The notes under the pieces: generated by a model
Told to the model about the DNA's origin: nothing
Database searches by the model: none
Seen by the model: only the letters and a program-made list of their open reading frames with translations
NCBI GenBank assembly: GCA_963772365.1
Contig: CAVYXA010000004.1
Coordinates: 37,761-101,760, forward strand
Length of the DNA: 64,000 nucleotides
Origin: an uncultured Verrucomicrobiae bacterium
Lineage (GTDB): Bacteria > Verrucomicrobiota > Verrucomicrobiia > Chthoniobacterales > UBA10450
Reading direction: 5' to 3'
Made by a program: the position numbers and the translations under genes
Part shown: positions 3,648 to 31,511 of the stretch, piece by piece
Layout: each line of letters opens with the position of its first letter
Position numbering within the stretch: the stretch's first letter is position 1

Positions 3648-4064
3648 ATGAGACGCTATTCACAGCGTCAGGGATTATCATCGCTCAGCGAGATCAACAT
3701 CACGCCGTTGCTCGATCTGGCGTTTGTGCTGTTGATCATTTTCATGATCACCACACCGCTGCTCGAGAGCAGCATGAATCTCATCATTCCATCGAGCACT
3801 CAGCAAAATCCGACGATCAAATCTCCGGAAGTGCAGACGATCTCGATCGATCGGGCCGAGAAGATCACGTTCAACGATCAGATTGTCGATCTTCCGACGC
3901 TCACAGCTCAATTGGTCCAACTGAAGCAGACGAATCCTGACGTGGCTGTGGTGATTCGACCGGATCGGGACTTGCCAGTGCAGAAATTGATCGCATTGAT
4001 GGACGCGTTGCAAAGCGCGCAAATCACGAAAGTAGGCATCGCCACCAAAGCTGGATCGAAATAA
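3648..4064 (+). CDS. tolR: ExbD/TolR family biopolymer transport protein
   Basis: 138 aa. The N-terminal EINITPLLDLAFVLLIIFMIT segment is the ExbD/TolR signature TM helix. It sits next to the tolQ-like gene. Confidence 0.8.
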   Translation: MRRYSQRQGLSSLSEINITPLLDLAFVLLIIFMITTPLLESSMNLIIPSSTQQNPTIKSPEVQTISIDRAEKITFNDQIVDLPTLTAQLVQLKQTNPDVAVVIRPDRDLPVQKLIALMDALQSAQITKVGIATKAGSK

Positions 4065-6209: not shown

Positions 6210-7220
6210 TTACAACAGCGCCAGCGATTTGCCTTCGCGTCCAGTGACTTGATCCATGGTGCATTGGCGGGGCGATTTGTCGGGTCGCCAGCGGAGAAAT
6301 TTCGTCCCGTGCCGGAACCGGCCGCCTGTGAAATGATCGTAGGCAACTTCGACTACACTCTTAGGTTCGACAGGTTCCCATTGGCCGCTTCTCTCAGTGC
6401 TCCAGCGACTCGGCCCGCCTGGCGCATTGCCGGTGAATCCCGGTGGGTTGCGCAATGCTTCAAATTTTTTTGTGAGCGAACGGCGTTCGCTTGCCTTGAT
6501 TGCGGATGTGAAGCCAACATGATGAAGTAATCCATCATCGCCGTACAAACCGAGCAAAAGCGAGCCGAGAACTTTGCCGCTGCTGGCATAACGAAATCCG
6601 CCCACTACGCAATCCGCGCTCCGGATCTTTTTTACCTTCACCATCGCGGTCCGTTCACCGGAAGCGTAGGGCAGATCGAGACGTTTTGCGATTACGCCAT
6701 CGAGATCGCCGCCGGCTTTAGCAAACCATTTCTGTGCCTGCTTCAGGTTCGTCGTGGCTGGCGACAGTTTCACAGCCCCTGTGAGTTCGAATTTATCGAG
6801 CTGGACCCGCCGCACGCGAAGCGGCTGTTTTAAATACGATTGTCGATCCTGCGCGAGCAGATCGAATACGACATAGATGGCCGGTTGTACTTTCGCTAAT
6901 TTCGCAACCCGGCTGGCGGCGGGATGCAAACGCAATTGCAATTCGTCAAAAGAAAGTCTGCCACCAACCGCGATTGCTAGCTCACCATCGACGACGAAAT
7001 TCCGACCCGGCAATTTTCTCACCGATTCCACCACATCAGGAAAATAGCGCCCTAGCGGTCGTCCGTTTTTCGATTGCAGATAAACATCGTTCCCGTTTCG
7101 AAAAGCTATGCAGCGAAACCCATCCCATTTCGGTTCGTACTGCCAATTATCACCGACTGGAATTTCCTCCACTGTGCGCGCCTCCATGGGCGGAAGAGGC
7201 GGTTTAATTGCAAATTTCAT
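6210..7220 (-). CDS. ATP-dependent DNA ligase (minimal adenylation + OB type, LigC/LigD-ligase-like)
   Basis: 336 aa with nucleotidyltransferase motif I YEPKWDGFRC. Downstream are VVDGELA, a DLLxxD block and an OB-domain tail ending FLRWRPDKSPRQC. Confidence 0.85.
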   Translation of the reverse strand: MKFAIKPPLPPMEARTVEEIPVGDNWQYEPKWDGFRCIAFRNGNDVYLQSKNGRPLGRYFPDVVESVRKLPGRNFVVDGELAIAVGGRLSFDELQLRLHPAASRVAKLAKVQPAIYVVFDLLAQDRQSYLKQPLRVRRVQLDKFELTGAVKLSPATTNLKQAQKWFAKAGGDLDGVIAKRLDLPYASGERTAMVKVKKIRSADCVVGGFRYASSGKVLGSLLLGLYGDDGLLHHVGFTSAIKASERRSLTKKFEALRNPPGFTGNAPGGPSRWSTERSGQWEPVEPKSVVEVAYDHFTGGRFRHGTKFLRWRPDKSPRQCTMDQVTGREGKSLALL

Positions 7221-7890
7221 CCCGAGCGTAACGCCGTGGAGTCAATTTTGGCGGGCGCTTCCCATTTCGAATGGCTCCGGCGACGGGAATATATCGCAAC
7301 TCCTGTCGATCGTGTGCGCATCGCAGCATCAAACCTCCGCGACTCATGTCGCCGCGTCCGATAAAATCTGCCGGGAAACAAAGCTTTTTCTGAAAATTGG
7401 CGAGAAGAACATCGACATATTTTCCGCTGGCAATGCTTCCGAGTAGAACAACGTCGGATGTAATGGATAATTTTCTCGCAAGGAGCCCGGCGTCTCGCTC
7501 GAGCGGTTTGCGATAGCGCGGATCGTTTTCGTCGATGTCGATCTCGGCAAACTCGCGTAGATCCTCGAGTCGAATCCGCGTCTGAGCATCGACAAGTCCG
7601 CGTGTTGGTGTGATCACAAACACGGCGGAAGCGCCGTTAGCCGAACGCGCGAAAGTTTCCGCGTAGGCGATCTTGCCGCGGAAATAGAGTCCGCTCAAAA
7701 ATGTAAACACCTCGGCAATGCTCGCTCCGCGCCTGCTCCGAAGTTTTTTCGCGAGATCAAATTTCGCAGTCTCTCTCAGGATCATCTGTGCGCGTCGGCC
7801 ACCCGCGTAAGCCGGCGATAACAAAAAGATGCGGCTTTCACCGGTTTGGCGAGCCTGGTCAGTTTCCGAATTTTTCATCCTCATTATCAC
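7204..7890 (-). CDS. Hypothetical protein, translationally coupled to the DNA ligase
   Basis: 228-aa ORF whose 3' end overlaps the ligase start by 17 nt. I recognise no motif. The composition is coding-like, with conserved-looking blocks IFLLSPAYAGGRRA, VVLLGSIASGKYVDVL and FIGRGDMSRGGLMLRC. Confidence 0.5.
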   Translation of the reverse strand: MIMRMKNSETDQARQTGESRIFLLSPAYAGGRRAQMILRETAKFDLAKKLRSRRGASIAEVFTFLSGLYFRGKIAYAETFARSANGASAVFVITPTRGLVDAQTRIRLEDLREFAEIDIDENDPRYRKPLERDAGLLARKLSITSDVVLLGSIASGKYVDVLLANFQKKLCFPADFIGRGDMSRGGLMLRCAHDRQELRYIPVAGAIRNGKRPPKLTPRRYARDEICN

Positions 7891-7982
7891 CGCGCAATCT
7901 TCCGATTCGATCGCTCTGGTGCAAGTTTTCGCCTCGACCTAATTCTATCAAGTGTTGCCTTTAGGCCGCTGTTCGGAAAATA

Positions 7983-8939
7983 ATGAAAGGCATGCGCTGG
8001 CCTGTGAAACTGCAAGCCGATGATCGTGATGAATGGGAACGGCGGTGCTCAACAAACGGGCATCAGCCTGATTTCATCTGCATCGGCGCCCAAAAGTCCG
8101 GGACTTCGTGGCTGTATCATCAACTTACATGCCACGCCGATTTTTGGATGCCGCCGGTCAAAGAGCTGCACTACTTCGATCTGCTGAGCAAGTTCAAGCG
8201 GAAAAAACCTCCGCGTTGTCAGGACGAACGCGACCGCTGGTTCATGGAAAAGTTACTGGAGCTCACCCAACGGCCGTATCTCGATCTGGAAAGGTATTCG
8301 GGCTTGTTCCAATGCAAAGGGACGCTCCTGTGCGGTGATATCACTCCAGGCTATTCAATTCTAAGCGAGGAAATCATCGAGCAGGTCATGGATTTTTTTC
8401 CAGATCTCAAGGTCATCTTTCTGGCCCGCGATCCAGTGGAGAGAGCGTGGTCGCAATTGTCGATGGACGTCCGGCTGGGAGGGGTTCGCTTGTCCGATCC
8501 CGCAGATGGCGATGAGGTCATCCGGAACTTGCGCAATCCCGCAGTTTTGCTGCGTTCGTTTCCAAGCAAAATTATTGCGCGTTGGCGCCGCTATGTACGG
8601 CCAGAATTGTTGCGGATTTATTTCTTTGACGATTTGGAGCGACAACCGGGGAAAGTTCGCGATGAGATCATCAGTTTCCTGGGGGGCGATCCAGAAAAGC
8701 CAAGCGGCCGAATCGCACCCGATTACAACACGAATCGCGGAAGCGAAAAATCTCGATTCACTGACCGAGTCCGTTCGCGCCTTGCCGATTTTTTTCAAGA
8801 AGAACTGAGAACCTGCGCATCAGAACTGGGCGGACCGGCGAAAAATTGGCCCGCACGGTACGGGTTTTCACTGCTTTGGTTCCTGCTTGATTTGGCGAAT
8901 GATCTCGATCTCTTCGGCTGGTGCGATTCCTTTACCTGA
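7983..8939 (+). CDS. Sulfotransferase family protein
   Basis: 318 aa. The 5'-PSB loop FICIGAQKSGTSWLYHQL and the 3'-PB region VIFLARDPVERAWSQ are typical of PAPS-dependent sulfotransferases. Confidence 0.7.
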   Translation: MKGMRWPVKLQADDRDEWERRCSTNGHQPDFICIGAQKSGTSWLYHQLTCHADFWMPPVKELHYFDLLSKFKRKKPPRCQDERDRWFMEKLLELTQRPYLDLERYSGLFQCKGTLLCGDITPGYSILSEEIIEQVMDFFPDLKVIFLARDPVERAWSQLSMDVRLGGVRLSDPADGDEVIRNLRNPAVLLRSFPSKIIARWRRYVRPELLRIYFFDDLERQPGKVRDEIISFLGGDPEKPSGRIAPDYNTNRGSEKSRFTDRVRSRLADFFQEELRTCASELGGPAKNWPARYGFSLLWFLLDLANDLDLFGWCDSFT

Positions 8940-9017
8940 AGTCGTTGATTTTTTATTATCATCGCCTGGGCCGGGTCGAGATCACATTCCGTGAATTTGA
9001 GGCAGAGCGAATCGATC

Positions 9018-9416
9018 TCAATCGCCCGCAGACGTTGCAGAGAAGACGCCGCGGTTTTTTCTCTCCGCCCGGGTCCGATTCGCCTCGAGCTCAGCCAAAT
9101 GTTTTTCTGACCATCGACAAAGCGCGTGCAATGGCTCGATCAATGTTCGTCCGAGGCGAGTCAACGAATACTCAACCTTGGGCGGAACGACGGGGTGGAC
9201 CTTTCGCTGGACTAGTCCGTCGCGCTCGAGACTTCGCAGAGTTTGAGTAAGCATCTTCTGCGAGATGCCGCCGATCTCACGCTGGAGCGTTGCGTAGCGC
9301 ATCGTTCCGCGAGCGAGAATCTGGATGATGAGCGCGGTCCATTTGTCCGCAATCCGATCGAGGACGAGCCGGGAAGGGCACTGCGGCTCCAGAACAGAGG
9401 GAGGGGATTTCGCCAT
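9018..9416 (-). CDS. HxlR family winged-helix transcriptional regulator
   Basis: CPSRLVLDRIADKWTALIIQILARGTMRYATLQREIGGISQKMLTQTLRSLERDGLVQRKV...VEYSLT is the HxlR signature. I trimmed the start to the internal ATG (MAKSPPS) at 9416, because the 170-aa version runs into the divergent protease gene. Confidence 0.8.
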   Translation of the reverse strand: MAKSPPSVLEPQCPSRLVLDRIADKWTALIIQILARGTMRYATLQREIGGISQKMLTQTLRSLERDGLVQRKVHPVVPPKVEYSLTRLGRTLIEPLHALCRWSEKHLAELEANRTRAERKNRGVFSATSAGD

Positions 9417-11898: not shown

Positions 11899-13056
11899 AT
11901 GTCTGTCTCTCGGCCGCTTACTTTCACCCTTCGATTTCCTGGCGCTTTAGCGGTCTTTTTCCTCGGCATCGTTTCCAGCGCGGAGATGCTGGCGCAGCCG
12001 CCAAGGCCATCTCCCGCCCGGCTGCCGACGCCAACCAAATCGTCGGCGACACCATCTCCTTCACCACCCTCTACGCCGACGAAAGAGGAATTGATTAACG
12101 AACTGACGCCCGCTGATTTGCAATCGGCCATTGGATTTTTCAAAAACAATTTCGCAAACCCCGGCGCCCTGAGTGAAGTCGAACTGAATCGCGCGCTGGT
12201 GGAAGGATTGATGACACGTCACAATCGCGGGGCGATGCTTTTGCCCGCTGGCGCGAGCGCCTCCGGCAGTCCGCCGAGCCCATTTTACAGTGAGATTTTG
12301 GAAGGGCACATCGGCTATTTGCGTCTGGGAACGCTGAATTCTGCGAATCTTCAGGAACTCGATAAAGCCCTTCCGCAGTTTGTTTCGAAAAAGGTCGACG
12401 CGATCATTCTCGATCTTCGGGGCAGCTCTGAATCCAACGATTTTGCAATCGCAGCGGAAATCGCGAATCGATTTTGTTCCCGAGGAAAACCGCTTTTTAG
12501 CTTGCATAAACCGGGGGCGCGCCAGGACAGAATGTTTAATTCCGATCGCAATCCCGCATTTCAAGGATTGACCGTTGTGCTGACCGACGGCGAGACGGCA
12601 GGTGGGGCGGAAGCTGTCGCTGGCGCGCTGCGGATGAATGACAAAGCCCTTATCATCGGTGAGCCGACGGCCGGTCGCGCGGCGGAATATTCCGACCTGC
12701 AATTGCCGAGCGGCAAGATTCTTCGCCTGGCGGCGGCGGACGCGGTTTTGCCTGACGGCCAGCAATTATTTCCCGATGGAATCAAACCCGATGTGCCGGT
12801 GGAGATGTCGATAGTAAACAAGCGCCAGATTTTTCAGCTGAGCGCCCAAAACGGACTCGGCCCGTTTGTTTACGAAGCGGAACGGCCACATATGAATGAA
12901 GCAGCGCTTATCGCGGGGACGAACCCGGAACTAGACGCGGCCGAAGCCGAGCAGCGACGGCGGCAGCCCGGAGCGTCAAGACCCGCAGTGCACGATGTGG
13001 TTTTGCAGCGCGCTCTCGATCTGGTGACATCCGTCGAGATTTATCAAAAACGATAA
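11899..13056 (+). CDS. S41 (C-terminal processing peptidase-like) family protein, secreted
   Basis: Signal-like N-terminus and a Pro-rich linker. S41 core blocks are IGYLRLGTL, AIILDLRGSSESN and LTDGETAGGAEAVAGAL...IIGEPTAGRA. Confidence 0.65.
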   Translation: MSVSRPLTFTLRFPGALAVFFLGIVSSAEMLAQPPRPSPARLPTPTKSSATPSPSPPSTPTKEELINELTPADLQSAIGFFKNNFANPGALSEVELNRALVEGLMTRHNRGAMLLPAGASASGSPPSPFYSEILEGHIGYLRLGTLNSANLQELDKALPQFVSKKVDAIILDLRGSSESNDFAIAAEIANRFCSRGKPLFSLHKPGARQDRMFNSDRNPAFQGLTVVLTDGETAGGAEAVAGALRMNDKALIIGEPTAGRAAEYSDLQLPSGKILRLAAADAVLPDGQQLFPDGIKPDVPVEMSIVNKRQIFQLSAQNGLGPFVYEAERPHMNEAALIAGTNPELDAAEAEQRRRQPGASRPAVHDVVLQRALDLVTSVEIYQKR

Positions 13057-13787: not shown

Positions 13788-15170
13788 TCATTTCACGCCA
13801 ATGGCCGCTTCTATGACTTCCGCGATGCGGTTGGCTTGTTTGTCGATCTTATCGAAGTCGCGGCCTTCGATGAGCAATCGAATCTTTGGCTCGGTGCCGG
13901 AGTAACGCAATAGCACCCGCCCCTTCCCATCCAGTTCCCGTTCGATTTCATCCCGTAGTTTCACCAGACCGCGCAGCTCCTCAATCGGCGGTTTTATTTT
14001 CACAACGAGATTGCGCTGGGCTTGCGGATATTTCTTCAGACAGCTTTTCAATTTGCTCAACGGCTGACCGCTCTCGTGCATAATCCTCAGGATTTGCAGC
14101 GCGCTGATGATGCCGTCGCCGGTTGTCGTGAAGTCGCGAAAAATAATATGGCCGCTCTGCTCACCACCCAAATTCAGGTTCTGTTTCATCATCTCCTCGA
14201 TCACGTACCGGTCGCCCACTTTCGTCCGGACTACTTTGCCACCGTGTACAGTCAACGTTTCATCAAGTCCGAAATTGCTCATCACCGTTGCGACCAGGAC
14301 GTTGTCGCGAAGTTCTCCTCTGCTCAGAAGATCGACTGCCGCGATCGCGAGAATTTCGTCACCATCGACAATTTCGCCATTCTCATCGCAGAGCAGAACG
14401 CGGTCGGCATCGCCATCGTGGGTAATGCCCACATCCGCGCCAGCCATTTTCACGATCCGCTGAATCTCCTCGGGATGCGTGCTGCCGCATCCGTCGTTGA
14501 TGTTCATGCCGTTAGGCTGGTTGTGGGCGATGGCAACATCGGCGCCGAGCTCGCGTAAAATGCACGGGGTCGATTTGTAAGCGGCGCCATTGGCGACATC
14601 CACCGCCACCCGCATTTCTTCGAGCGACATTTTCCTGGGGAAACTAGCCTTGGCGAATTCGATATAGCGGCCGAGGGCATCGTCGATCCTCGCGGCTCGG
14701 CCGATTTTCCCTGCCGTGGGTCGGACCGAATCAATCGCGCCGGTAAAGACGAGCTGCTCGATTTTTTCCTCGATCTGATCATCGAGTTTGTAACCATCGT
14801 GGCGGAAAAATTTGATGCCATTGTCCTCATAAGGATTGTGCGAAGCAGAAAGGACAATCCCGGCATCGGCGCGAAGCGATCGGGTAATGTAGGCCACGCC
14901 CGGTGTGGGCAGAGGTCCGATGACGAGAACATCGACACCGAGCGATGTGATCCCGGCCACGAGCGCATTTTCCAACATGTAACCCGAGAGACGAGTGTCC
15001 TTACCGAGAACAATTTTCGGACGCGTACCTCCGGGCGTCGTCCGCGGATTGAGTTGCGTAAAAACGTGCGCGGCAGCACGCCCCAATTTGAGCGCCGTCT
15101 CAGCAGTGACGGGCTCGACATTGGCCACGCCACGAACACCGTCGGTCCCAAAGATCTTTTTCGTCTGCAT
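13788..15170 (-). CDS. glmM: Phosphoglucosamine mutase
   Basis: KIFGTDGVRGVAN N-terminus, phosphoserine loop SASHNP, metal loop DGDADR and GEQSGH. Confidence 0.92.
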   Translation of the reverse strand: MQTKKIFGTDGVRGVANVEPVTAETALKLGRAAAHVFTQLNPRTTPGGTRPKIVLGKDTRLSGYMLENALVAGITSLGVDVLVIGPLPTPGVAYITRSLRADAGIVLSASHNPYEDNGIKFFRHDGYKLDDQIEEKIEQLVFTGAIDSVRPTAGKIGRAARIDDALGRYIEFAKASFPRKMSLEEMRVAVDVANGAAYKSTPCILRELGADVAIAHNQPNGMNINDGCGSTHPEEIQRIVKMAGADVGITHDGDADRVLLCDENGEIVDGDEILAIAAVDLLSRGELRDNVLVATVMSNFGLDETLTVHGGKVVRTKVGDRYVIEEMMKQNLNLGGEQSGHIIFRDFTTTGDGIISALQILRIMHESGQPLSKLKSCLKKYPQAQRNLVVKIKPPIEELRGLVKLRDEIERELDGKGRVLLRYSGTEPKIRLLIEGRDFDKIDKQANRIAEVIEAAIGVK

Positions 15171-15198
15171 CTGTATCAGGCCGCCGCGCCGCGATAAT

Positions 15199-16944
15199 CT
15201 ACAGTGACGACGACGATTCCGTTTGTCGATTGTGATCGCTCAGAAAAATGCATTCATTCTCCAGTCCGAGCAGCATGCCCCATTTCAATGGGAATGTCTC
15301 CAGATTCACCGTCCGCGAAATAATTGGCGCCCACGCGCTGTATTCTCCTTTCAAAATGTCGCCGAGGGTATTTTGGCTGCCGCTGATGGGTGTGAGATAA
15401 AGACCGTAAACCGGGCCGCCAAGAATTCTGTAATCGCTGATATCGGTCATCTCCTTGATCGTTTCCGGCACATAGAGAGCGCGCCGATCGGCATACCACG
15501 CCACCGCCCACGGCATATCGGACGCGGTCACCTCGTTAGGCTTCATCCAATCGTTCAACACGGCGATGTAGGGCGGAACATAAGGCGGCCAGCGGATCGA
15601 TGACTCCGGTTGTTTGAAGAATGGTAGTTTTAGGATCAGGGGCGTAGCGCAAAGTAAAAACAACAGCGTGATGAATGCGATCCGCGCCACTCGAAGACGC
15701 AGCTCCAATCGACGCCATTGGACCAGAAGGAACGCGAGCCCGTAGCAGGTCATCAGCGGCACAAACATCAGGTGCAGTTGGTTTGCGGCAAAACCTTGTT
15801 CTTCATTGACGCCAAAGACGGCCATGCCTGTGACGCCGCCGAGCCACATGGTCAAAAGCATCCATCGAATTGTTCCCGTTTCGCGGCGTCTGAAAACGTA
15901 AAGCAGCCCGGCAAAAAACATGATCGCGACAATGCTGTAGCCGAAATATCCGAAGAGTCCCGCCGCCTGATTCAAAAAATTGGTGACGATCTTATCGCGG
16001 AAACTCGAAGGGAGAGCACTCCCTTCCAAGTCCAAACTCAGCCGCCGCATCCAGCCGGATTCGGTATGCTGGATTCCGTCGAGAACGGAATAGATCGCCA
16101 GACCCGCAGGATTTCCACTAACGAGATAATTTCGGATCAGCCACGGAAAATAAACAATCGCGAACGCAGCCAACAAAACGAGAGCAGCCCAGCCCCGCGG
16201 CCGAAAAAAGAAAACGCAGTAAATGAATGCAGCGACAAAAATCCAGATAGTCAGCGCGTGAGTGAGGGCCAGAAGTCCGAAACCGAGCCCGACGAAGGCC
16301 AGCCACAATCCCACGCGTCCGCCGCCATATCGTGCTTCGACAGCGCGAACCAGTGCATACATGGTGCAGTTGAACAAAAACAGCAGCAGCATCTGAGGCA
16401 GACCGGAGAGCGAGTACTGCCAGAACATGTCGCAGAGCAAGACCAGCGCGCACGTCATCAAAGCCAGACGCTGATCGAACAATCGCCGCACAATAAGGTA
16501 GAGAACCACTACCGAAAGCAAAAAGAGCGCGATCGCCATCACCACGACCGCCCGATCCCCAGCGTATAGAACGTCGGCCGGCGTCATTTTCCAGTGGGAT
16601 TTGATCGGGAAAAGCGCAATCGCATCCACCAAAGACGGCAACGGCGCATTATAAGTGTCGATCCAAATTTTCTGCGGCACATCTTTGCCATGGGCCAGCA
16701 GGTTCCCAATCGAGAGTGGCCGGGCAAAATTCGTTCGCCAACCATGACCGCGAGCAATTTCCCGACCGATTTGCGCCTGATCCATCGCCTGCGAGGTGGC
16801 CAGCCCGCGGAACTCGTGCGTCATATAAAAGATAGCCAGCAGTGCAACGCCCGCCAGGGCGAGGCCGCGACGCATCCAAACTACGGGCTTGCCAGCTTCT
16901 AGACTGTGAACTAGGCGCTGGATGAATTCTGCGCTACCTGGCAT
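15199..16944 (-). CDS. Multi-pass membrane protein, probably a GT-C fold (ArnT/PMT-like) glycosyltransferase
   Basis: 581 aa with at least 10 predicted TM helices followed by a soluble C-terminal domain. This is the general architecture of GT39/GT83 enzymes. I could not verify a diagnostic motif. Confidence 0.4.
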   Translation of the reverse strand: MPGSAEFIQRLVHSLEAGKPVVWMRRGLALAGVALLAIFYMTHEFRGLATSQAMDQAQIGREIARGHGWRTNFARPLSIGNLLAHGKDVPQKIWIDTYNAPLPSLVDAIALFPIKSHWKMTPADVLYAGDRAVVVMAIALFLLSVVVLYLIVRRLFDQRLALMTCALVLLCDMFWQYSLSGLPQMLLLFLFNCTMYALVRAVEARYGGGRVGLWLAFVGLGFGLLALTHALTIWIFVAAFIYCVFFFRPRGWAALVLLAAFAIVYFPWLIRNYLVSGNPAGLAIYSVLDGIQHTESGWMRRLSLDLEGSALPSSFRDKIVTNFLNQAAGLFGYFGYSIVAIMFFAGLLYVFRRRETGTIRWMLLTMWLGGVTGMAVFGVNEEQGFAANQLHLMFVPLMTCYGLAFLLVQWRRLELRLRVARIAFITLLFLLCATPLILKLPFFKQPESSIRWPPYVPPYIAVLNDWMKPNEVTASDMPWAVAWYADRRALYVPETIKEMTDISDYRILGGPVYGLYLTPISGSQNTLGDILKGEYSAWAPIISRTVNLETFPLKWGMLLGLENECIFLSDHNRQTESSSSL

Positions 16945-18403
16945 TTTCGGATTCGGTGGTTACGTCGTTGCGCGCCGGACCCTGAGTCGGAGCCGGACTG
17001 CCATTTTCGCGGGATAGCTCGCTGGCTGCCTTCATCTCGTTGATCTTTCGATGAAGTGTTCGCCTGCTAATGCCGAGCTTCTTTGCTGCTGCCGTCACGT
17101 TGCCATCTGTCGCTGCAAGTGCCTGCATGATCAACTTTTTCTCCGTTTCATGAAGATCGAGCGGGCTCGCCTTTTCGCCATAGGCTTTAGCAGCGGAAAT
17201 GCCGCGCGGTAAAGTTCCGCCCGCAGCCTGGCGCACGGCCATCGGTAAATCACGCAAGGTCAGCTTCGAACCGGTGGCCATGACCACGCCGTGCTCGATC
17301 GCCGTTCGCAGCTCGCGCACATTGCCAGGCCAGTTGTAAGTGAGCAGTGCGTTCATGGCGTCGGCGGTAAGATCGACAACCGATTTCTCATTCGCTTTCG
17401 AAAAATGCCGCAGAAAAGATTTAACTAATATCGGAATATCGTCCTTTCGCTCCCGCAAAGGCGGCATGGTAATGCGCACAACATTGAGCCGAAAGAAAAG
17501 ATCATCACGAAATTTTCCTTCGCGCACGAGCGCCTCAAGGTTTTTGTTGGTCGCGGCAATCAAGCGAACATCCGCCCGCAAGGTCTGATTGCCGCCCACT
17601 CGTTCAAACGAACGCTCTTCGCTGATCACGCGCAAAAGTTTTACCTGTGTGCTCGGCGGAATTTCGGCCACTTCGTCGAGAAAAATTGTGCCGCCATTGG
17701 CCTGCTCGAATCTTCCGATCCGGCGTTCATGCGCGCCAGTGAAGGCGCCTTTCTCATGACCGAACAATTCGCTTTCCAGAAGAGTAGGAGAAAGCGCCGC
17801 GCAATGCACTGTTACGAATTTCGTCTTGCTACGGCGGCTCAAATTATGAATCGCATGGGCTGCCAATTCCTTGCCGGTACCGCTTTCTCCTTCGATCAAG
17901 ACATTCGCCGACGACGGCGCCACCTGCTTGATGGTTGCGAGCACTTCATGTAGAGCCGGTGATTCTCCAATGATGTTTTCCAGCCCGAACCGCTCATCCA
18001 CTTGCTGGCGCAGTACGCGGTTTTCCTGTTCCAGGTTGCGGCCCTTGAGCGCTCGCGCGATCAGCATCTCGATTTTGTCGAGGTTGAGCGGTTTGGTCAC
18101 AAAATCGTAAGCGCCGCGTTTCATCGCTTCGACCGCGGTATCCACCGAGCCGTAAGCAGTCATCATGATGCAAATCGGCGATTGCGGAAGTTTGAGAGCG
18201 CGATCAATCAACTGCATCCCGTCTTCGCCGCCAAGCCGCAGATCCGTGAGAAGCAAATCGATTGGCTCGCGTTCGAGGACGCTCATCGCGCCGGCGATAT
18301 CTCCCGCGACATAGACATCGTAGTCATCTTCCAGCAATCGACGCAGCCCGTCCCGGGTATGTTTTTCATCATCGACAATCAGTATGGTTGGTTGTGGCGA
18401 CAT
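16934..18403 (-). CDS. Sigma-54-dependent response regulator (NtrC family)
   Basis: Receiver domain (ILIVDDE...LLLTDLRL), AAA+ domain with GESGTGKE and the GAFTGA loop (EKGAFTGA), and a C-terminal Fis-type HTH (AAKKLGISRRTLHRKI). Its stop overlaps the downstream membrane gene by 11 nt. Confidence 0.88.
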   Translation of the reverse strand: MSPQPTILIVDDEKHTRDGLRRLLEDDYDVYVAGDIAGAMSVLEREPIDLLLTDLRLGGEDGMQLIDRALKLPQSPICIMMTAYGSVDTAVEAMKRGAYDFVTKPLNLDKIEMLIARALKGRNLEQENRVLRQQVDERFGLENIIGESPALHEVLATIKQVAPSSANVLIEGESGTGKELAAHAIHNLSRRSKTKFVTVHCAALSPTLLESELFGHEKGAFTGAHERRIGRFEQANGGTIFLDEVAEIPPSTQVKLLRVISEERSFERVGGNQTLRADVRLIAATNKNLEALVREGKFRDDLFFRLNVVRITMPPLRERKDDIPILVKSFLRHFSKANEKSVVDLTADAMNALLTYNWPGNVRELRTAIEHGVVMATGSKLTLRDLPMAVRQAAGGTLPRGISAAKAYGEKASPLDLHETEKKLIMQALAATDGNVTAAAKKLGISRRTLHRKINEMKAASELSRENGSPAPTQGPARNDVTTESENAR

Positions 18404-25543: not shown

Positions 25544-27532
25544 ATGAAACACACGTTTTTTCTTCACGCGCTCGTTGTCCTGTTTGGGATCAATTCTTCG
25601 CTCCATGCAGCGGTTAACGTCACGCAGGAGCACAACAACCTCTCGCGCGACGGCGTTTACGTCGATGCGGCCTTTACTGCATCCGCGGCCGCCAATCTGA
25701 CCCGCGACCTCAACTTCAACGGGGCGATCTCGGGCAATATGCTTTCCCAACCGCTCTACATTGAAGGCGGCCCAAATGGACCGATGGTGATTGCCGCGAC
25801 GGAATCGAACAACGTCTACGCGCTGAATGCGATTACCGGCAGCATCATTTGGCAGCGTAACCTCGGTAACCCGGCGACGAGCGGTTTGCCGTGCGGCAAC
25901 ATCAATCCCCTCGGAATCAGCGATACGCCGGCTGTCGATCTTCCGTCCCGCGCGCTCTTTCTGGACGCCATGGTCGATACCGGAACTGCCAAGAAGCATC
26001 TTATTTTCTCACTGAATGTAGACACGGGCGCGACCAATCCCGGTTGGCCAGTGGATGTGAGTGCCGCGTTTCCATCATTTGATTCTCCCCATCACAACAA
26101 TCGCGGCGCGCTCGCTGTAGTGAACGGTATCATCTACGTGCCATACTCGGGGCACTTCGGAGATTGCACTCCATACCGGGGTTGGGTCGTTGGCGTGCAG
26201 ATCGACAATCCCTCGGCTGTCTTGGCTTGGTCCACGAGCGCAAACGGTGGCGGAATCTGGGGGCATTCCGGCGTAGCCAGCGACGGCACGAATATGTTCG
26301 TCATTACCGGCAACACGATCGGCACCGGCGGAACTTATAGCCAGGGCGAATCAATCATCCGGTTACAAGCCGGGCCGGTCTTCAACAACAACACCCAGAA
26401 TTATTGGGCCCCCACTAATTGGTTCTCTCTCGACAATTCCGACTCCGATCTCGGTGGTTGCAGCGCCATGCTCCTCGATGTCCCCGGTGCGACGCCTTCC
26501 CAACTCGTCCTGGCTTTGGGCAAAGATCGTAACGCGTATCTGGTGGATCGCAATAATCTTGGCGGAATCACTTCGGCCATCGCGTCGATGAACGTCTCCA
26601 GTTCCACACTCCGCGGACAGTCTTCCTGCACCTATCACACGAGCATGGGGACATATTTCACTTTCCGCGCCGGGACAAGCAACACCCTGGTCGCTTATCG
26701 GGTCAACCCCGGCAGCCCTCCCACCATGAGCAGCGCCTGGCTGGTGACACAATCCGGTGAAGGTTCGCCGTTCGTCACTTCCACTGACGGTACGAACAAT
26801 TTCATTGTCTGGGCATGTGGCGCCGGCGGTTCGCAGCGATTGAACGGTTACAACGCCGATACCGGCGCGCTGGTTTTTGCTGGCGGCGGATCGAACGAAT
26901 TGATGAGTGGCACCCGGAAATGGAACACCGGAATCGCCGCACGTGGCCGCATTTATTATCCCGCCGACAATCGCATCTACGCCTTCAAACTGCCGGTGCC
27001 CGAGCTTCAAGTTGCTTCTGCCGTTTCACGCAAAACGCACGGCGCCGCGGGCGATTTCGATATTGAGCTTCCGCTTTCCGGCCCTCCCGGCGTCGAATGT
27101 CGCATCGGCGGCGCGACTAACGATTACCAGTTTGTCTTCACGTTCAGCAACAATGTCGAAAGCGGGAATGCTACCGTGACCAGCGGAACCGGCACAGTGT
27201 CCGGCTCACCGACATTTTCCGGAAACACCATGACCGTGAATTTGACCGGCGTGACCGACATGCAAACGATTACAGTCACTCTGAGCGGCGTAACCGATCA
27301 GTTCCTCCAGGTCTTGCCCGACACACCCGTGAGCGCAAACATGTTGATCGCCGATACCAACGGCAATGGAACCGTAAACTCCTCAGATGTCGCCCAGACC
27401 AAGGGGCAGGTTGGCCAGACGGTGACCAGCGGCAATTTCCGCACCGACGTCAACGCCAACGGTAAAATCAACTCAACTGATGCAGCGATCGTAAAATCGC
27501 ACTCGGGCGGCGCGGTCCGGGCACGGATGTAA
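25544..27532 (+). CDS. Secreted PQQ-like/BamB-like beta-propeller protein with a C-terminal SRKxHG + dockerin-like module
   Basis: Signal peptide, then propeller-type repeats (ESNNVYALNAITGSIIWQRNLG, NGYNADTGALVF, RIYYPADNRIYAF). The last ~169 aa are shared with the gene at 36327..38345 and contain two DxNxNGxxNxxD loops. Confidence 0.65.
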   Translation: MKHTFFLHALVVLFGINSSLHAAVNVTQEHNNLSRDGVYVDAAFTASAAANLTRDLNFNGAISGNMLSQPLYIEGGPNGPMVIAATESNNVYALNAITGSIIWQRNLGNPATSGLPCGNINPLGISDTPAVDLPSRALFLDAMVDTGTAKKHLIFSLNVDTGATNPGWPVDVSAAFPSFDSPHHNNRGALAVVNGIIYVPYSGHFGDCTPYRGWVVGVQIDNPSAVLAWSTSANGGGIWGHSGVASDGTNMFVITGNTIGTGGTYSQGESIIRLQAGPVFNNNTQNYWAPTNWFSLDNSDSDLGGCSAMLLDVPGATPSQLVLALGKDRNAYLVDRNNLGGITSAIASMNVSSSTLRGQSSCTYHTSMGTYFTFRAGTSNTLVAYRVNPGSPPTMSSAWLVTQSGEGSPFVTSTDGTNNFIVWACGAGGSQRLNGYNADTGALVFAGGGSNELMSGTRKWNTGIAARGRIYYPADNRIYAFKLPVPELQVASAVSRKTHGAAGDFDIELPLSGPPGVECRIGGATNDYQFVFTFSNNVESGNATVTSGTGTVSGSPTFSGNTMTVNLTGVTDMQTITVTLSGVTDQFLQVLPDTPVSANMLIADTNGNGTVNSSDVAQTKGQVGQTVTSGNFRTDVNANGKINSTDAAIVKSHSGGAVRARM

Positions 27533-27604
27533 TCTTTTTTGCCCGTCGGTTGTTCGCCAGGCGTTAGATTGCTTTGCGAAATCCTTTGACGTAAAATTGA
27601 CGCT

Positions 27605-27790
27605 GTGGATGCAATCGCCGAAAAACTGAACACGAAGCTGAGTACATGGAAGCCAGAGGTTTCACGTGAAGTACGCGCTGTGGTCTCCGACGTGATCGAG
27701 GCCGCCGACAACGACACGCTCGACCTGCAACGCTCGCGGGCTGTCGAGCAGGAAGTGCTCGACCAATTGGATGAGTCCGCATCCAGGTGA
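27605..27790 (+). CDS. Putative antitoxin of the adjacent MazF/PemK-like toxin
   Basis: 61-aa acidic ORF with a GTG start that overlaps the toxin start by 20 nt. It is preceded by the direct repeat TTGACGTAAAATTGACG (27586..27602). Assignment is by position only. Confidence 0.45.
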   Translation: MDAIAEKLNTKLSTWKPEVSREVRAVVSDVIEAADNDTLDLQRSRAVEQEVLDQLDESASR

Positions 27791-28226
27791 GGTTTGGCTA
27801 GCCGACCTCGGGTTGGCTGCGAAGACCCGGGCAGTTGTGATTCTCTCGCGGCACGATCCAGAGGCGCCCCGCGCACTTGTCGAGTACGTGCCGCTGACGA
27901 TACAAAACCGCGGGAGTCGATACGAGGTCATCCTGCCACAACTGCGTTTTCTACGCGAGACGAGCATCGCGAATGTGCAAGGCATCGCCTCGATTCCGTT
28001 GGCTCGACTCGAGCGAAAGCTCGGCGAACTAGCTCCCGACACGCTCATAGCAATCCGCAAAGTGAGCAACGCGCAACGGACGTCACCCAAATCCAGTCTA
28101 CAAGCTGGTCAGCCCACGAGCGACACTAATGCTCCGCACGACGTAAGCGCCAACGGTACAATCAACTCGACTGATGCAACGATCGTGAAATCCCACTCGG
28201 GCGGCGCCGTTCGTCCGAATGAGTAA
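27771..28226 (+). CDS. PemK/MazF family toxin, fused at its 3' end to a remnant of a dockerin-like gene tail
   Basis: The N-terminal ~105 aa (PGEVWLADLG...KTRAVVILSRHD...ANVQGIASIPLARL) fit the PemK/MazF SH3-like fold signature. The last ~44 aa (DVSANGTINSTDATIVKSHSGGAV) are homologous to the C-terminus of 25544..27532. Confidence 0.65.
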   Translation: MSPHPGEVWLADLGLAAKTRAVVILSRHDPEAPRALVEYVPLTIQNRGSRYEVILPQLRFLRETSIANVQGIASIPLARLERKLGELAPDTLIAIRKVSNAQRTSPKSSLQAGQPTSDTNAPHDVSANGTINSTDATIVKSHSGGAVRPNE

Positions 28227-28231
28227 GTCGC

Positions 28232-29476
28232 CTAACGACAGACGTGCGTTTCCGGGTTCATTCGATATTTCCAGTCAGACCCGTTTGAGCCAGCTTCGCT
28301 CAAAGCGGAATCGACGAGCGAGCGATTCGCGGACAATGTGCAGACCGGATCCGTGTTGGCGGCGTTGCCGGTGAGCAACGCCGCTTGGCAACGGCAGCCA
28401 CCGAAATCGATTTCTTTTTTCGGACAACTCCGACACGGCTCCGGCATCCAATCGGTTCCGCGAAACCGGTTAAAGCTCTCCGATTCTCGCCAGATCCAAT
28501 CGAGCGACTGCTCCCGGACATTTTCGAATTGCATATCCGGAATCGCCGATGATGCCGTCGGACAGGGCGAGACGTCGCCGATCGGATTGACGGTGAGATA
28601 GCGCTGGCCCCAGCCGTTTAGGCACGGTTTCGGCCGCGTTTCGTAATAATCGGGCAGGACATAAAAGATGTCGATCTTACTGGCTAGCCGTTCTTTTGCC
28701 GCAGCCGCGATTTCACGGGCACGCTCGACTTGTTCGCGCGTCGGCAATAACGCGGCCCGATTCAAAAATGCCCAGCCGTAGAATTGCGTGTTGGCCAGCT
28801 CGACCCGATCGGCGCCGAGCTCTTCTGTCAGATCGATCATCTCTTCCAACTGATCGATGTTGTGCCGATGCAAAACGAAATTAAGGCTGAGAGAAATGCC
28901 GGCGCTGCGAATTAGCGCCGCGGCGTGGAGCTTTCGTTGATGTGCTCGCGCGCCTGCGATCTCATCGGCAAGATCGACATCGGCAGCTTGAAAACTGAGT
29001 TGCACAGAATCAAGGCCGGCGTCCCGCAATTCATTGACCCGCTTTTCATCGAGGATGATGCCGCTGGTGATCAGATTGGTGTAGAGATTGGATTCCCGAG
29101 CCGCGCGAATAATCGCGGCAAGATCGCGCCGAACCAGCGGTTCACCGCCGGAAAAGCCAACCTGCAATACGCCCAGCGCTGCCGCTTCACGAACAACGCG
29201 GAGCCATTCCTCGGTGGTCAATTCCGCATGAAGTGCTGTAGCGTGCGCTGTCCTCAGCGCATCTGTTGATGGCGCCGCTCGGCTTCCGCTGAGGAGAGCG
29301 GACGCTACACTGACCGGATTCGAGCAATACGGACAATGCAGCGGACAACGATGTGTCAGCTCCGCCAGCAATGCGTATGGACGCGGCGGCGCTGTAGGGG
29401 AAGCTGATAGCTTCCCGCGTGGCTGCGTTTTAGGGAAAGTGTCAGTTTCCCCTACAGTTTTCTTTGTCGTGCTCAT
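28232..29476 (-). CDS. pqqE: PQQ biosynthesis radical SAM/SPASM enzyme PqqE, with two repeat-derived in-frame insertions
   Basis: LLAELTHRCPLHCPYCSNP (CxxxCxxC radical SAM), GFSGGEPLVRRDL and C-terminal SPASM cysteines (CPTASS...CRSCPKKEIDFGGCRCQA). An ATGA overlap joins it to pqqD. Confidence 0.9.
   Translation of the reverse strand: MSTTKKTVGETDTFPKTQPRGKLSASPTAPPRPYALLAELTHRCPLHCPYCSNPVSVASALLSGSRAAPSTDALRTAHATALHAELTTEEWLRVVREAAALGVLQVGFSGGEPLVRRDLAAIIRAARESNLYTNLITSGIILDEKRVNELRDAGLDSVQLSFQAADVDLADEIAGARAHQRKLHAAALIRSAGISLSLNFVLHRHNIDQLEEMIDLTEELGADRVELANTQFYGWAFLNRAALLPTREQVERAREIAAAAKERLASKIDIFYVLPDYYETRPKPCLNGWGQRYLTVNPIGDVSPCPTASSAIPDMQFENVREQSLDWIWRESESFNRFRGTDWMPEPCRSCPKKEIDFGGCRCQAALLTGNAANTDPVCTLSANRSLVDSALSEAGSNGSDWKYRMNPETHVCR
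29236..29310. repeat. Family C GTAG-REP doublet (REPIN) inside pqqE
   Basis: CTGTAGCGTGCGCTGTCCTCAGCGCA...CCGCTGAGGAGAGCGGACGCTACAC spans 75 nt (25 codons). It encodes SVASALLSGSRAAPSTDALRTAHAT, directly after the radical SAM CxxxCxxC motif. Confidence 0.75.
29391..29456. repeat. Family C GTAG-REP doublet (REPIN) in the pqqE N-terminal region
   Basis: CTGTAGGGGAAGCTGATAGCTTCCC...GGGAAAGTGTCAGTTTCCCCTACAG spans 66 nt (22 codons) and encodes TVGETDTFPKTQPRGKLSASPT. Confidence 0.75.
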
Positions 29477-29757
29477 GCGAACTCGATCAATTTTCGGCGC
29501 TGAAAATCCGAGAGCGTCTCCTGAACATCTGCTGCAATTGTGGCAGGATCGACATCGTATTCTTTGGCGAGGTCGCTGATGATTTCCCCAAGTACCCGCC
29601 CATCACAACGCGCCATGATTTCGTGAGCGGTTTCGTTCAGTTCGACGATCCCCTCTGGATGAAGCAGGACAGATTTACCGCTGGCATTATCAATCTGGAA
29701 GCGAACGCCCGGCGCAAGACGTGGCCGCATGTCGTCACGAATTGTTTGCATAAGCAT
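29473..29757 (-). CDS. pqqD: PQQ biosynthesis peptide chaperone PqqD
   Basis: 94-aa version starting MLMQTIRDDMRPRLAPGVRFQ...LLHPEGIVELNETAHEIMARCDG, which is typical PqqD size and sequence. The 150-aa track ORF extends upstream into pqqC and I trimmed it. Confidence 0.8.
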   Translation of the reverse strand: MLMQTIRDDMRPRLAPGVRFQIDNASGKSVLLHPEGIVELNETAHEIMARCDGRVLGEIISDLAKEYDVDPATIAADVQETLSDFQRRKLIEFA

Positions 29758-30508
29758 GATGAATTGCGTCCAGAATCGCCCAGAGCAGATCGCATTTGAA
29801 CTGGAGCGCGCGAACGGCGGCTTCCTGTAGCTCGCGCGTGTTGCAATAACGCATGGTGATCTCGAGGGCTTCGGTCGAATCCCGCCGGGCTTGAGTAACC
29901 CGCCGCCGAAAATAATCGAGTCCACTTGTGTCGATCCACGTATAAAATTTTTCGAACGCGGCGAGACGCGTCGCCATCAAATCGGGCGCGAACAGTTCCG
30001 TGAGCGACGAGGCGATTGCGACCGGCCATGGCTCGCGTCGAGCGAAATTCACGTAGGCATCGACCGCGAACCGGACGCCGGGCAGAAGATGTCGATCCTG
30101 CAACAAATCTTCTCTCGATAATCCACACGCTTGGCCCAATCGCAGCCAGGCTTCGATCCCGCCTTCTCTGATCGGATTGTCGCCTCGGCTGTCCTGAACC
30201 GATTGCCCCTGTGATCCGCTGAGGACAGCGGACTCTACAGCGTCGATCAGCCCGTCATGATCGACAATCCGATGGACCCAGACCCGCCGCACGTCGCGCT
30301 CGGGACAATTGGAAAGAATGGCGGCGTCTTTGATCGGGATGTTGCGCTGGTAATAAAACCGGTTTGCCACCCAGCCGCGCAACGCTTCCTTCGAAAGCCG
30401 GCCCTCATTCATCGCAAGATGAAACGGATGTTTGTCGTGATAAGCGCGTCCGCCGGTCTCGCGCAGTTTCTCGATGAAAATCTCGCGATCCCAAACCGTG
30501 GCGGTCAT
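29735..30508 (-). CDS. pqqC: Pyrroloquinoline-quinone synthase PqqC, with a repeat-derived in-frame insertion
   Basis: YHDKHPFHLAMNEGRLSKEALRGWVANRFYYQ, RIVDHDG, GGIEAWLRLGQACGLSREDL and LPGVRFAVDAYVNFAR are PqqC blocks. An extra ~25 aa lie between DHDG and GGIEAWL. Confidence 0.9.
   Translation of the reverse strand: MTATVWDREIFIEKLRETGGRAYHDKHPFHLAMNEGRLSKEALRGWVANRFYYQRNIPIKDAAILSNCPERDVRRVWVHRIVDHDGLIDAVESAVLSGSQGQSVQDSRGDNPIREGGIEAWLRLGQACGLSREDLLQDRHLLPGVRFAVDAYVNFARREPWPVAIASSLTELFAPDLMATRLAAFEKFYTWIDTSGLDYFRRRVTQARRDSTEALEITMRYCNTRELQEAAVRALQFKCDLLWAILDAIHHAYANNS
30185..30240. repeat. Family C REP inside pqqC, with a degenerate inverted partner
   Basis: GATCCGCTGAGGACAGCGGACTCTACAG (30213..30240) is an intact GTAG-REP on the minus strand. 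TCGGCTGTCCTGAACCGA (30185..30202) keeps the hairpin but has lost the GTAG head. Confidence 0.65.
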
Positions 30509-31404
30509 AAAACGATTTCCATTCCATCGAATCCGATCTCAACTCCCGCCTTTTCGACTTGTTGTCGCTCCTCTGAGCCGGGCATCAGAATCGGATTGGT
30601 ATTGTTGATGTGAGTGTAAACCTTCCGGCTTGCCGACAAACTGCGCAACAAATCGAGAGACCCGTCGCGAATCGGCAAATGATGCATTTCCTGCGCGGTG
30701 CGCGCACCTGCCCGAACGGCAGATAACTCGTCGTTTGACCAAAAAGTTCCGTCGAACAGGATCACATCGGAGGCGTGGATTGCCTCGCGCAGATGATCTG
30801 TCAGTTCGCCAACCGCCGGCGCGATCACGGCACTCTTGCCGGAGTTTTCATCACGCAATTGAAAAGCAATGCTCTCGGGCAATGGAATCGCGGAAACGGA
30901 AATCTTCAGGCCGGGCAAGATTGAGCTTTGTAGGGCAACCGCTTCGGTTGCCGAGGCAGGCGGAGCGCCTGCCCTACAATTCGTGATGTCTGGGTTCAGG
31001 TCGCGCCATTCTATTCCGCAAAATTGTCTGAGCAGATTGTCGATCCAATTCAGCGCGATCCGCGTGGACCGATCGGCATAAACAAGCAACGGTTGCTCCC
31101 GTTGCCGCAGCAAAACCAGACCCAGCGCATGATCGATGTCCGCATTGGTGAGAAGAACGGCCGCGATGGGACTGTTCCGCAACGAATGGGGCCGCGGTTG
31201 CAGTTCTGGCGTGCTCTCGATTTGACGCGCCAGATCCGGTGAAGCGTTGATGAGAAACCAATGTCGATCATCGGCAGTGACGGCGACGCTCGACTGCGTC
31301 TGCGGTTGAATTTTTCCCGCGCGTGCGGCAAAGCAATTTGGACAAGCGCAATTCCATTGCGGCAGGCCGCCACCCGCCGCGCTCCCGAGAATTCGGATAC
31401 GAAT
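30505..31404 (-). CDS. pqqB: PQQ biosynthesis protein PqqB (MBL fold), probably starting at ATT, with a repeat-derived in-frame insertion
   Basis: The frame is open from the TAG at 31408..31410 and reads (V)IRIRILGSAAGGGLPQWNCACPNCFAAR...SSVAVTADDRHWFLINASPD, the canonical PqqB N-terminus. The first ATG/GTG/TTG is 74 codons later (the track ORF begins at 31182). The ATT at 31402..31404 lies 6 nt after GAGGGT. Confidence 0.8.
   Translation of the reverse strand: MRIRILGSAAGGGLPQWNCACPNCFAARAGKIQPQTQSSVAVTADDRHWFLINASPDLARQIESTPELQPRPHSLRNSPIAAVLLTNADIDHALGLVLLRQREQPLLVYADRSTRIALNWIDNLLRQFCGIEWRDLNPDITNCRAGAPPASATEAVALQSSILPGLKISVSAIPLPESIAFQLRDENSGKSAVIAPAVGELTDHLREAIHASDVILFDGTFWSNDELSAVRAGARTAQEMHHLPIRDGSLDLLRSLSASRKVYTHINNTNPILMPGSEERQQVEKAGVEIGFDGMEIVL
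30928..30979. repeat. Family C GTAG-REP doublet (REPIN) inside pqqB
   Basis: TTGTAGGGCAACCGCTTCGGTTGCC-GAG-GCAGGCGGAGCGCCTGCCCTACAA encodes NCRAGAPPASATEAVALQ. Confidence 0.75.
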
Positions 31405-31421
31405 GACCTACCCTCGCTCGA

Positions 31422-31511
31422 TCAGACAGCAGCCGCGTAGCAGGTGCACTCGAAAAAGATCGGCACGTAGCGCGCTGCGGGTTTGATCCACTTTTTCCTG
31501 TTCGATTTCAT
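31422..31511 (-). CDS. pqqA: PQQ precursor peptide PqqA (29 aa; absent from the ORF track)
   Basis: The minus-strand ATG at 31511 is preceded by AGGAG. The translation is MKSNRKKWIKPAARYVPIFFECTCYAAAV, with the W-x-KP motif and the E-x-x-x-Y pair (ECTCY) that is cross-linked into PQQ. It sits directly upstream of pqqB. Confidence 0.8.
   Translation of the reverse strand: MKSNRKKWIKPAARYVPIFFECTCYAAAV

Follow-up and report, generated by a model that had tools for sequence, protein, structure and literature searches.

The closest described relatives of the locus reported here are the MazEF and PemIK (Kis–Kid) toxin–antitoxin (TA) systems, in which the gene of a small acidic antitoxin comes first and overlaps the gene of a toxin with the PemK/MazF fold. 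We analysed a 64,000-nucleotide stretch of DNA (contig CAVYXA010000004.1 of GenBank assembly GCA_963772365.1), hereafter the window, from an uncultured Verrucomicrobiae bacterium of the Chthoniobacterales, and describe in it a cassette with the same fold signature and gene layout: an antitoxin open reading frame (ORF) at 27605–27790 (61 amino acids (aa), GTG start) and a toxin ORF at 27771–28226 (151 aa) that overlap by 20 nucleotides (nt), both present as the initial annotation of this DNA had described them. The cassette departs from MazEF and PemIK in that the C-terminal helix of its toxin is cut short and followed by a foreign tail of 53 residues, and in that its antitoxin is predicted to form three helices and has no known DNA-binding signature or database match. 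We think it likely that this cassette replaced most of a secreted-protein gene, P2, a tandem paralog of the neighbouring gene P1, leaving the tail as a remnant of P2, the toxin attenuated and the antitoxin intact.

The evidence for this account comes foremost from the closest relative found for P1 (86% aa identity), which lies on a 142-kb soil-metagenome contig, L065. There lysA, a 208-aa gene and P1 stand in this order and align with the window at 76–82%, and P1 is directly followed by an intact 676-aa tandem paralog, P2, with a dockerin of its own. The 3′ end of this gene (12077–12176) matches window 28133–28231 at 80% identity, through the stop codon and 5 nt beyond, whereas the tail of P1 on the same contig matches the window only to 28207. 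The terminal codons and the bases after the stop are likewise P2-like (…E TAA G.CGC), and P1 is followed in both genomes by a run of T. Further upstream, 28078–28122 is collinear with L065 P2 (p=0.002 in shuffles), matches L065 P1 more weakly (p=0.037) and gives no match to the window's own P1 (p=0.27 in shuffles). Because of this P2-specific end and the upstream match in L065, the tail is, as far as sequence comparison can tell, the remnant of the P2 of the window's lineage. According to the initial annotation, a TA cassette had landed in a paralogous secreted-protein gene or taken the place of most of it, and the 3′ end of that gene stayed behind, fused in-frame to the toxin; the intact P2 at that place in L065 bears this out, as do the match through the stop and 5 nt beyond, the 106-aa length of canonical toxins and the presence of such a tail in 0 of 2213 homologs. 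P1/P2 tandems beside pqq genes also occur in the more distant L068 and G020. The features of the locus are as follows.

25544–27532, plus strand: P1, an intact 662-aa secreted beta-propeller gene (PQQ-enzyme-like) that adjoins the cassette; Dockerin_1 match of 40.3 bits.
27438–27519, plus strand: left copy of an 82-nt repeat, the second calcium loop and helix of the P1 dockerin.
27533–27604, plus strand: spacer, made up of the P1 3′ flank with a T-run (about 27533–27541, common to the L065 P1 flank) and then the cassette upstream region, with the boxes TTGCTT (27569–27574) and, after 17 nt, TAAAAT (27592–27597).
27586–27602, plus strand: direct repeat TTGACG-TAAAA-TTGACG, which brackets the TAAAAT box; not conserved.
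27605–27790, plus strand: antitoxin gene, 61 aa, acidic, three predicted helices, GTG start, no upstream Shine-Dalgarno.
27771–28064, plus strand: MazF/PemK toxin domain (PF02452), residues 1–98, without the family's last ~8 residues and stop; substitutions P21A and T44I.
28065–28077, plus strand: junction; these 13 nt, between the end of toxin homology and the start of dockerin homology, cannot be traced to a source.
28078–28132, plus strand: decayed P2 remnant, the helix and linker between the two dockerin loops, with the match to L065 P2 (p=0.002); several indels are present, and over the first ~7 codons the reading frame is not the one used in P2.
28133–28226, plus strand: well-preserved P2 remnant, from the second calcium loop and helix to the final codons; the toxin ORF is terminated by the TAA stop of P2 (28224–28226).
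28232–29476, minus strand: pqqE, convergent with the fusion ORF, the stops 5 nt apart; right-hand context.

The C-terminus of P1 consists of an immunoglobulin-like domain and a two-loop dockerin module, and P1 orthologs share 86% aa identity in L065 and 84% in G001, a genome of the same genus. The surroundings of P1 and P2 differ among relatives: in L068, a 75%-identity relative, a 29-aa ORF that is possibly pqqA (3975–4064) lies between the two genes, and pqqBCDE (6373–9302) follow P2 on the same strand, giving the order P1, 29-aa ORF, P2, pqqBCDE. In the window the pqq operon (28232–31511) is wholly inverted, so that pqqE points at the P2 remnant and the two stops come to lie 5 nt apart.

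The toxin belongs to the PemK/MazF family, as had been suspected from the letters: residues 5–97 match PemK_toxin (PF02452) by hidden Markov model (HMM) search at 33.0 bits, above the curated cut-off of 23.1, and the protein matches a PHROG MazF-like growth inhibitor at E 1.2e-6. A profile of the toxin family (alignment A4) matches 30 PDB sequences at E 2e-10 to 5e-4, including MazF3, MazF9, MazF7, MazF6, MazF4, S. aureus MazF, EndoA, E. coli MazF and Kid, with M. tuberculosis MazF3 (5UCT) and MazF9 (5HJZ) the closest solved toxins; these alignments extend to profile position 105 of 106, so the C-terminal helix belongs to the MazF fold. We collected 2213 toxin homologs at E <= 0.001 and read lengths and residues from the 119 listed, most of which are 106 aa long and whose source names include 'Candidatus Udaeobacter sp.' and 'Chthoniobacterales'. 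Not one of the 2213 has the tail (query coverage at most 73%), and the exact 151-aa protein is found on one contig only. The tail is thus foreign to the toxin, as the initial annotation held, and not a conserved C-terminal domain of the family.

A pair of 61 aa and 106 aa with the 20-nt overlap recurs at 11 or more loci in varied contexts, next to LptF/G, an HAD hydrolase, a metallophosphatase or a GlgC-like gene. The toxin gene directly follows the antitoxin gene in 12 of 13 fetched loci (the contig of the 13th, L076, ends inside the pair), and this co-oriented pairing and its overlap are conserved between the window and the fetched homologous loci. Judged by its sequence, the locus is a standard chromosomal type II TA cassette with a putative small promoter region of its own, and its family is common among Candidatus Udaeobacter and other Chthoniobacterales. 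The canonical cassettes of 61 and 106 aa (L065 15738–16224; L059 3835–4321) have the same GTG start, 20-nt overlap and TTGCxT-17/18-TAAAAT box as the window, and identity to the L065 pair is 84% for the antitoxin and 75% for the toxin. The difference lies at the toxin end. When ten homologous loci are aligned with the window at the DNA level, they share sequence with it from ~70 nt before the GTG as far as ~28064 (…IRKVS); the canonical genes go on …IRKALAFATEMA and stop at 106 aa, whereas the window lacks those ~8 codons and the stop in every frame and continues with P2-derived sequence. The toxin domain therefore falls short of the family's normal length of 106 aa with a complete C-terminal helix, its homology ending at residue ~98.

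The tail also resembles the end of P1 within the window. Positions 27445–27519 and 28139–28213 are 88% identical without gaps, and an alignment with one gap extends the repeat to 27438–27519 and 28133–28213, the 82-nt core, in which no identical run exceeds 14 nt. Within the whole genome this match has a BLAST E of 4.8e-22, its score is reached by 0 of 2000 dinucleotide shuffles, and the other dockerin tails of the genome (~44) attain at best 83% over 36 nt or 74% over 70 nt. Formal alignment thus upholds the homology between the toxin tail and the end of P1 that the initial annotation had noticed but not the extent claimed for it, since the roughly 85% identity given for 44 codons (27401–27532 and 28095–28226) comes to 73.7% with 10 gap columns. 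Upstream of the core, at 28062–28132, similarity to the window's P1 is not significant by itself (p=0.25–0.27 in shuffle tests).

This likeness to P1 admits a different origin of the tail, an insertion-linked duplication, in which the cassette would have entered the dockerin of P1, ~80–150 nt of the P1 tail would have been duplicated with one copy left behind the toxin, and there would never have been a P2. Nothing else in the genome matches the DNA of the tail as well as the adjacent P1 tail does (88%), the cassette lies between the two copies, which form direct repeats at a distance of 694 nt, and G001 and the contigs L066 and L067 have P1 without P2. We regard this explanation as improbable, because the tail matches L065 P2 past the limit of P1 similarity, in the last codons, the stop and the 5 nt after it, because the 45 nt upstream match P2 and not the window's P1, and because P1 still has its native 3′ flank with the T-run. 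A target duplication of 80–150 nt would also be too long for known transposition footprints, which to our knowledge are far shorter. The substitutions between the two window copies speak against it as well: of 10 differing sites 7 are synonymous and 3 non-synonymous (pN/pS, the ratio of non-synonymous to synonymous differences, 0.15), an excess pointing to a copy that evolved as working coding sequence, and a model in which the remnant has been neutral since the split gives P ~0.03–0.05. Until fairly recently P2 probably still functioned as a gene, though the numbers are small.

Replacement of P2 has to account for the same likeness. Over a codon-aligned 75-nt core (window 27446–27520 and 28140–28214, and the corresponding L065 tails), P1 and P2 tails are 87% identical within genomes and 73–76% identical between genomes. 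This pattern suggests concerted evolution (gene conversion) between the tandem dockerin copies, or a lineage-specific duplication, either of which would explain the tail's 88% likeness to the neighbouring P1.

Several points nevertheless weigh against replacement of P2. The 82-nt core is closer to the window's P1 (88%) than to L065 P2 (76–80%), so this account needs gene conversion or lineage-specific duplication to hold; the synonymous/non-synonymous test draws on only 10 differences; and the existence of P2 in the window's lineage would follow from one close contig (L065) and more distant ones, while P1 stands without P2 in same-genus G001 and in contigs L066 and L067. The intermediate arrangement, P1 followed by an intact cassette and an intact P2, was found in no genome, which leaves the order of events as one that we infer; the contigs of the closest antitoxin homolog (P0122) show another context with a GlgC-like neighbour and no such intermediate. 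The toxin itself may still be active, as it keeps Arg20 and Thr43. Finally, the contig may contain an indel error near 28060–28100, without which the ORF would end earlier. Comparison of synteny, proposed at the outset as a way to find the empty site, was informative in part: G001 and the window's genome share almost no gene order, G001 has P1 and pqqE on separate contigs, and no TA ortholog was found in it, leaving that genome uninformative for the empty site, and L065 shows the intact P2 after P1.

The last of these points belongs to a further explanation, that the ORF is an artefact, produced either by a misjoin at repeated dockerin sequence or by an indel error that hides the toxin's real stop, and that the organism makes no fusion protein. 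The genome is a 6-contig assembly of 90% completeness, probably a metagenome bin, and the alternative frames stop soon after the junction (28059–28061 and 28125–28127). Against this, the repeat is a poor substrate for misassembly (82 nt, 88%, no identical run >14 nt), no frame contains the canonical 3′ end and stop of the toxin, as one would if these had simply been shifted, and the remnant's own decay pattern and P2-specific end could not be created by a chimeric join of existing genes. We consider an artefact of either kind very improbable.

The junctions left by replacement of P2 can be placed closely. On the left, the junction falls somewhere in 27533–27565, with the cassette upstream homology starting within 27536–27565, and P1 retains the native 3′ flank with the T-run that it has in common with L065 P1. 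On the right, ~13 nt (28065–28077) are assignable to neither side, and the 68-nt junction and linker has only chance matches of 11–17 nt elsewhere in the genome and the fetched loci. An 11-mer at 28062–28072, GTGAGCAACGC, recurs exactly 309 nt downstream in pqqE (28371–28381); this recurrence is at about chance level (expectation ~0.1–0.2), but the 11-mer could also be filler templated during repair of the junction. The locus showed neither a transposase-like ORF nor a terminal inverted repeat, and its flanking direct repeats comprise one family only, the 82-nt dockerin repeat.

As the simplest and most likely history we propose two steps, in which the cassette would first have landed in the 85-nt spacer between P1 and P2, and a deletion of ~1.9–2 kb would then have joined toxin codon ~99 to the first dockerin repeat of P2; a one-step replacement would be equally compatible with the data. 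Either event would have removed the toxin's last ~8 codons and stop together with ~1.9 kb of P2. Translation would then cross the junction (~13 nt) and the decayed linker (~55 nt) before following P2's frame through the second calcium loop and helix to the P2 stop. The fused frame coincides with P2's original frame from ~28098 onward, so that the ORF ends at P2's own stop, and within it the conserved NFR(T/S)D motif reads NAPHD owing to one compensated indel pair.

What remains of the dockerin is half a domain. Toxin residues 111–141 match the second half of Dockerin_1 (positions 24–54 of 57) at 22.3 bits, just below the 22.9 cut-off, and the tail DVSANGTINSTDATIVKS aligns to the calcium loop and helix of a type I dockerin (PF00404; C. 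thermocellum Xyn10B dockerin, PDB 1OHZ chain B). Type I dockerins have two repeats; the tail has only the second, below the Pfam cut-off and without a secreted carrier, the first repeat being absent and the linker decayed. In contrast to cellulosomal dockerins, the module is in this organism the C-terminal tag of ~40 secreted proteins and not part of a cellulosome.

Such a fragment could in principle have acquired a role at the C-terminus of the toxin, where it might bind calcium, tether the protein or control its stability, and selection would then have kept it. The ORF is open to the P2 stop, its last 25 codons are dockerin-like with few amino-acid changes, and a single-sequence search of the PDB recognises the C. 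thermocellum dockerin (1OHZ_B, E 3e-4). To this functional fusion we give almost no weight, since it is unique (1 of 2213 homologs, the exact protein on a single contig), retains one of two calcium loops and has its conserved NFRxD motif destroyed by the compensating indels. Dockerin-type modules moreover act outside the cell, whereas the toxin, which lacks a signal peptide, would stay in the cytoplasm; the tail is predicted to be disordered, in an AlphaFold2 (AF2) model that is weak overall; and relatives (G015, G020, P0003 and P0007) have unrelated C-terminal extensions from frameshifts or stop loss. Being half a domain with no signal peptide and predicted disorder, the 53-residue appendix is an evolutionary passenger and not a working dockerin.

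Remnants of the ~40-member dockerin-tagged gene family are common in the window's genome (G000), which holds further short or stop-interrupted dockerin fragments in frames of 48–117 aa (C1:1367101–1368403, C1:1487067–1487195, C2:88364–88480 and C3:392540–392653).

Replacement of P2 would have left the toxin with a shortened C-terminal helix as well as a tail. Arg20 of the RP motif and Thr43 of the TTQ/TS motif, which we take to be the positions of catalytic R29 and T52 of E. coli MazF, are invariant in alignments A4 and A5, the window protein included. Each adjoins a substitution in the window toxin: P21A, where 119 of 119 other listed homologs have Pro, and T44I, in a column that is 97% conserved. 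In divergence from the family consensus the toxin ranks in the top 5% and the antitoxin in the top 24%. An AF2 model of the 151-aa protein is weak (mean predicted local distance difference test (pLDDT) score 54), with a MazF-like order of strands and helices and, at residues 104–148, pLDDT below 50 and no secondary structure. The truncated C-terminal helix and the substitutions beside both catalytic positions suggest that the toxin is probably attenuated and the module at an early stage of decay. Decayed MazF relics similarly show lesions concentrated in the toxin, an intact antitoxin and a rearranged accessory patch; here, by contrast, the toxin ORF is open, the residues at both catalytic positions are kept, and the lesion is a gene fusion with a datable and identifiable donor gene.

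The same toxin family shows independent lesions at its extreme 3′ end. Frameshifts of 1 nt at the toxin end occur in G015 (L041, G015:C129, 1501–1875) and G020 (L043, G020:C1, 1492–1920), and the proteins P0003 and P0007 have altered ends; across these cases a 1-nt deletion, a 1-nt insertion and stop loss give unrelated tails and proteins of 110–142 aa. Such unrelated C-terminal accidents in relatives make extended tails recurrent mishaps and not a domain architecture, and the last ~10 codons of the toxin family look like a recurrent damage site or a dispensable segment.

The antitoxin, by comparison with the toxin, has kept its family's features, deviating at 0 of 33 columns that are >=95% conserved. 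Its close homologs have the same length of 61 aa, and soil Chthoniobacterales carry the family widely (324 clusters at 50% identity), with W15, S44-R45 and an acidic stretch E48-Q-E-V-L…D56 nearly invariant; a phylum-wide scan with the antitoxin profile hit 4 of 401 genomes, two of them weakly and without an adjacent toxin of the window's family. The initial annotation could not place the protein among MazE/AbrB-type antitoxins, and our searches agree. No match was found in Pfam, NCBIfam, PHROGs or PADLOC, no consistent Pfam match among 48 family members, and no MazE/AbrB (AbrB/SpoVT), ribbon–helix–helix, Phd/YefM or helix–turn–helix signature; the family profile reaches only unrelated proteins in the PDB (best E 0.055). 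AF2 predicts three helices (2–14, 17–35 and 42–60; pLDDT 77.6), and Foldseek with this model returned no match at E below 9.6.

By analogy with MazEF, the antitoxin would bind and block the toxin dimer, and toxin not so bound would act on RNA by cleaving it; as in MazE, the toxin's RNA groove would be filled by the acidic C-terminal helix and the conserved Trp. It is possible, though we hold this only tentatively, that the 61-aa partner represents an undescribed class of MazF antitoxin: three-helix and acidic, without a known DNA-binding domain, and started from a GTG 6–7 nt behind a TAAAAT box, perhaps on a leaderless mRNA.

Conservation in the control region underlies the last of these features. 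In the alignment of the window with ten homologous loci, TTGCxT-17/18-TAAAAT is conserved, and TAAAAT stands 6–7 nt before the GTG in all aligned loci; all antitoxin genes examined start with GTG and have no Shine-Dalgarno. This suggests a leaderless mRNA, with an A/U-rich translation enhancer as the alternative. A consensus promoter scan called no sigma-70 site, and the promoter proposal draws on conservation. The TTGACG direct repeat, first put forward as a candidate operator, is present at 27586–27602, but its second copy is missing in 10 of 10 aligned homologous promoters; we therefore rule it out as a conserved operator, as it merely flanks the conserved TAAAAT box.

Two further observations concern PemK toxins in these genomes. 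The window's genome has a second PemK toxin of canonical length (105 aa; L012, C1:1200258–1200524), 40% identical to the window toxin, and the ORF just downstream of it resembles, by eye, the N-terminus of a type I restriction-modification specificity subunit. On L065 the canonical cassette lies within a 2.7-kb segment (14743–17468) together with an L-PSP gene and four small ORFs, and this segment is cleanly absent from the window's genome (C6:119287–119314), where the region is otherwise collinear (LptF/G … methyltransferase).

The fusion is a well-documented kind of genomic accident, a gene-replacement scar, and not a new kind of system, and it leaves the current understanding of TA biology unchanged. 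As a case study, it offers a chimeric ORF whose tail donor can be named, whose junctions can be placed within ~15–30 nt, and for which the order of the cassette event and of gene conversion between the tandem paralogs can be established. For annotation, the lesson is that a 151-aa 'PemK family toxin' with a dockerin match is a fusion artefact and not a new architecture. Candidatus Udaeobacter is among the most abundant and least tractable of soil bacteria, and the locus shows TA cassettes remodelling its fast-turning accessory gene families. Its wider value lies in the unclassified antitoxin family, the most novel element here, which, if it is true that it neutralises MazF without a DNA-binding domain, would add to the known repertoire of MazF partners.

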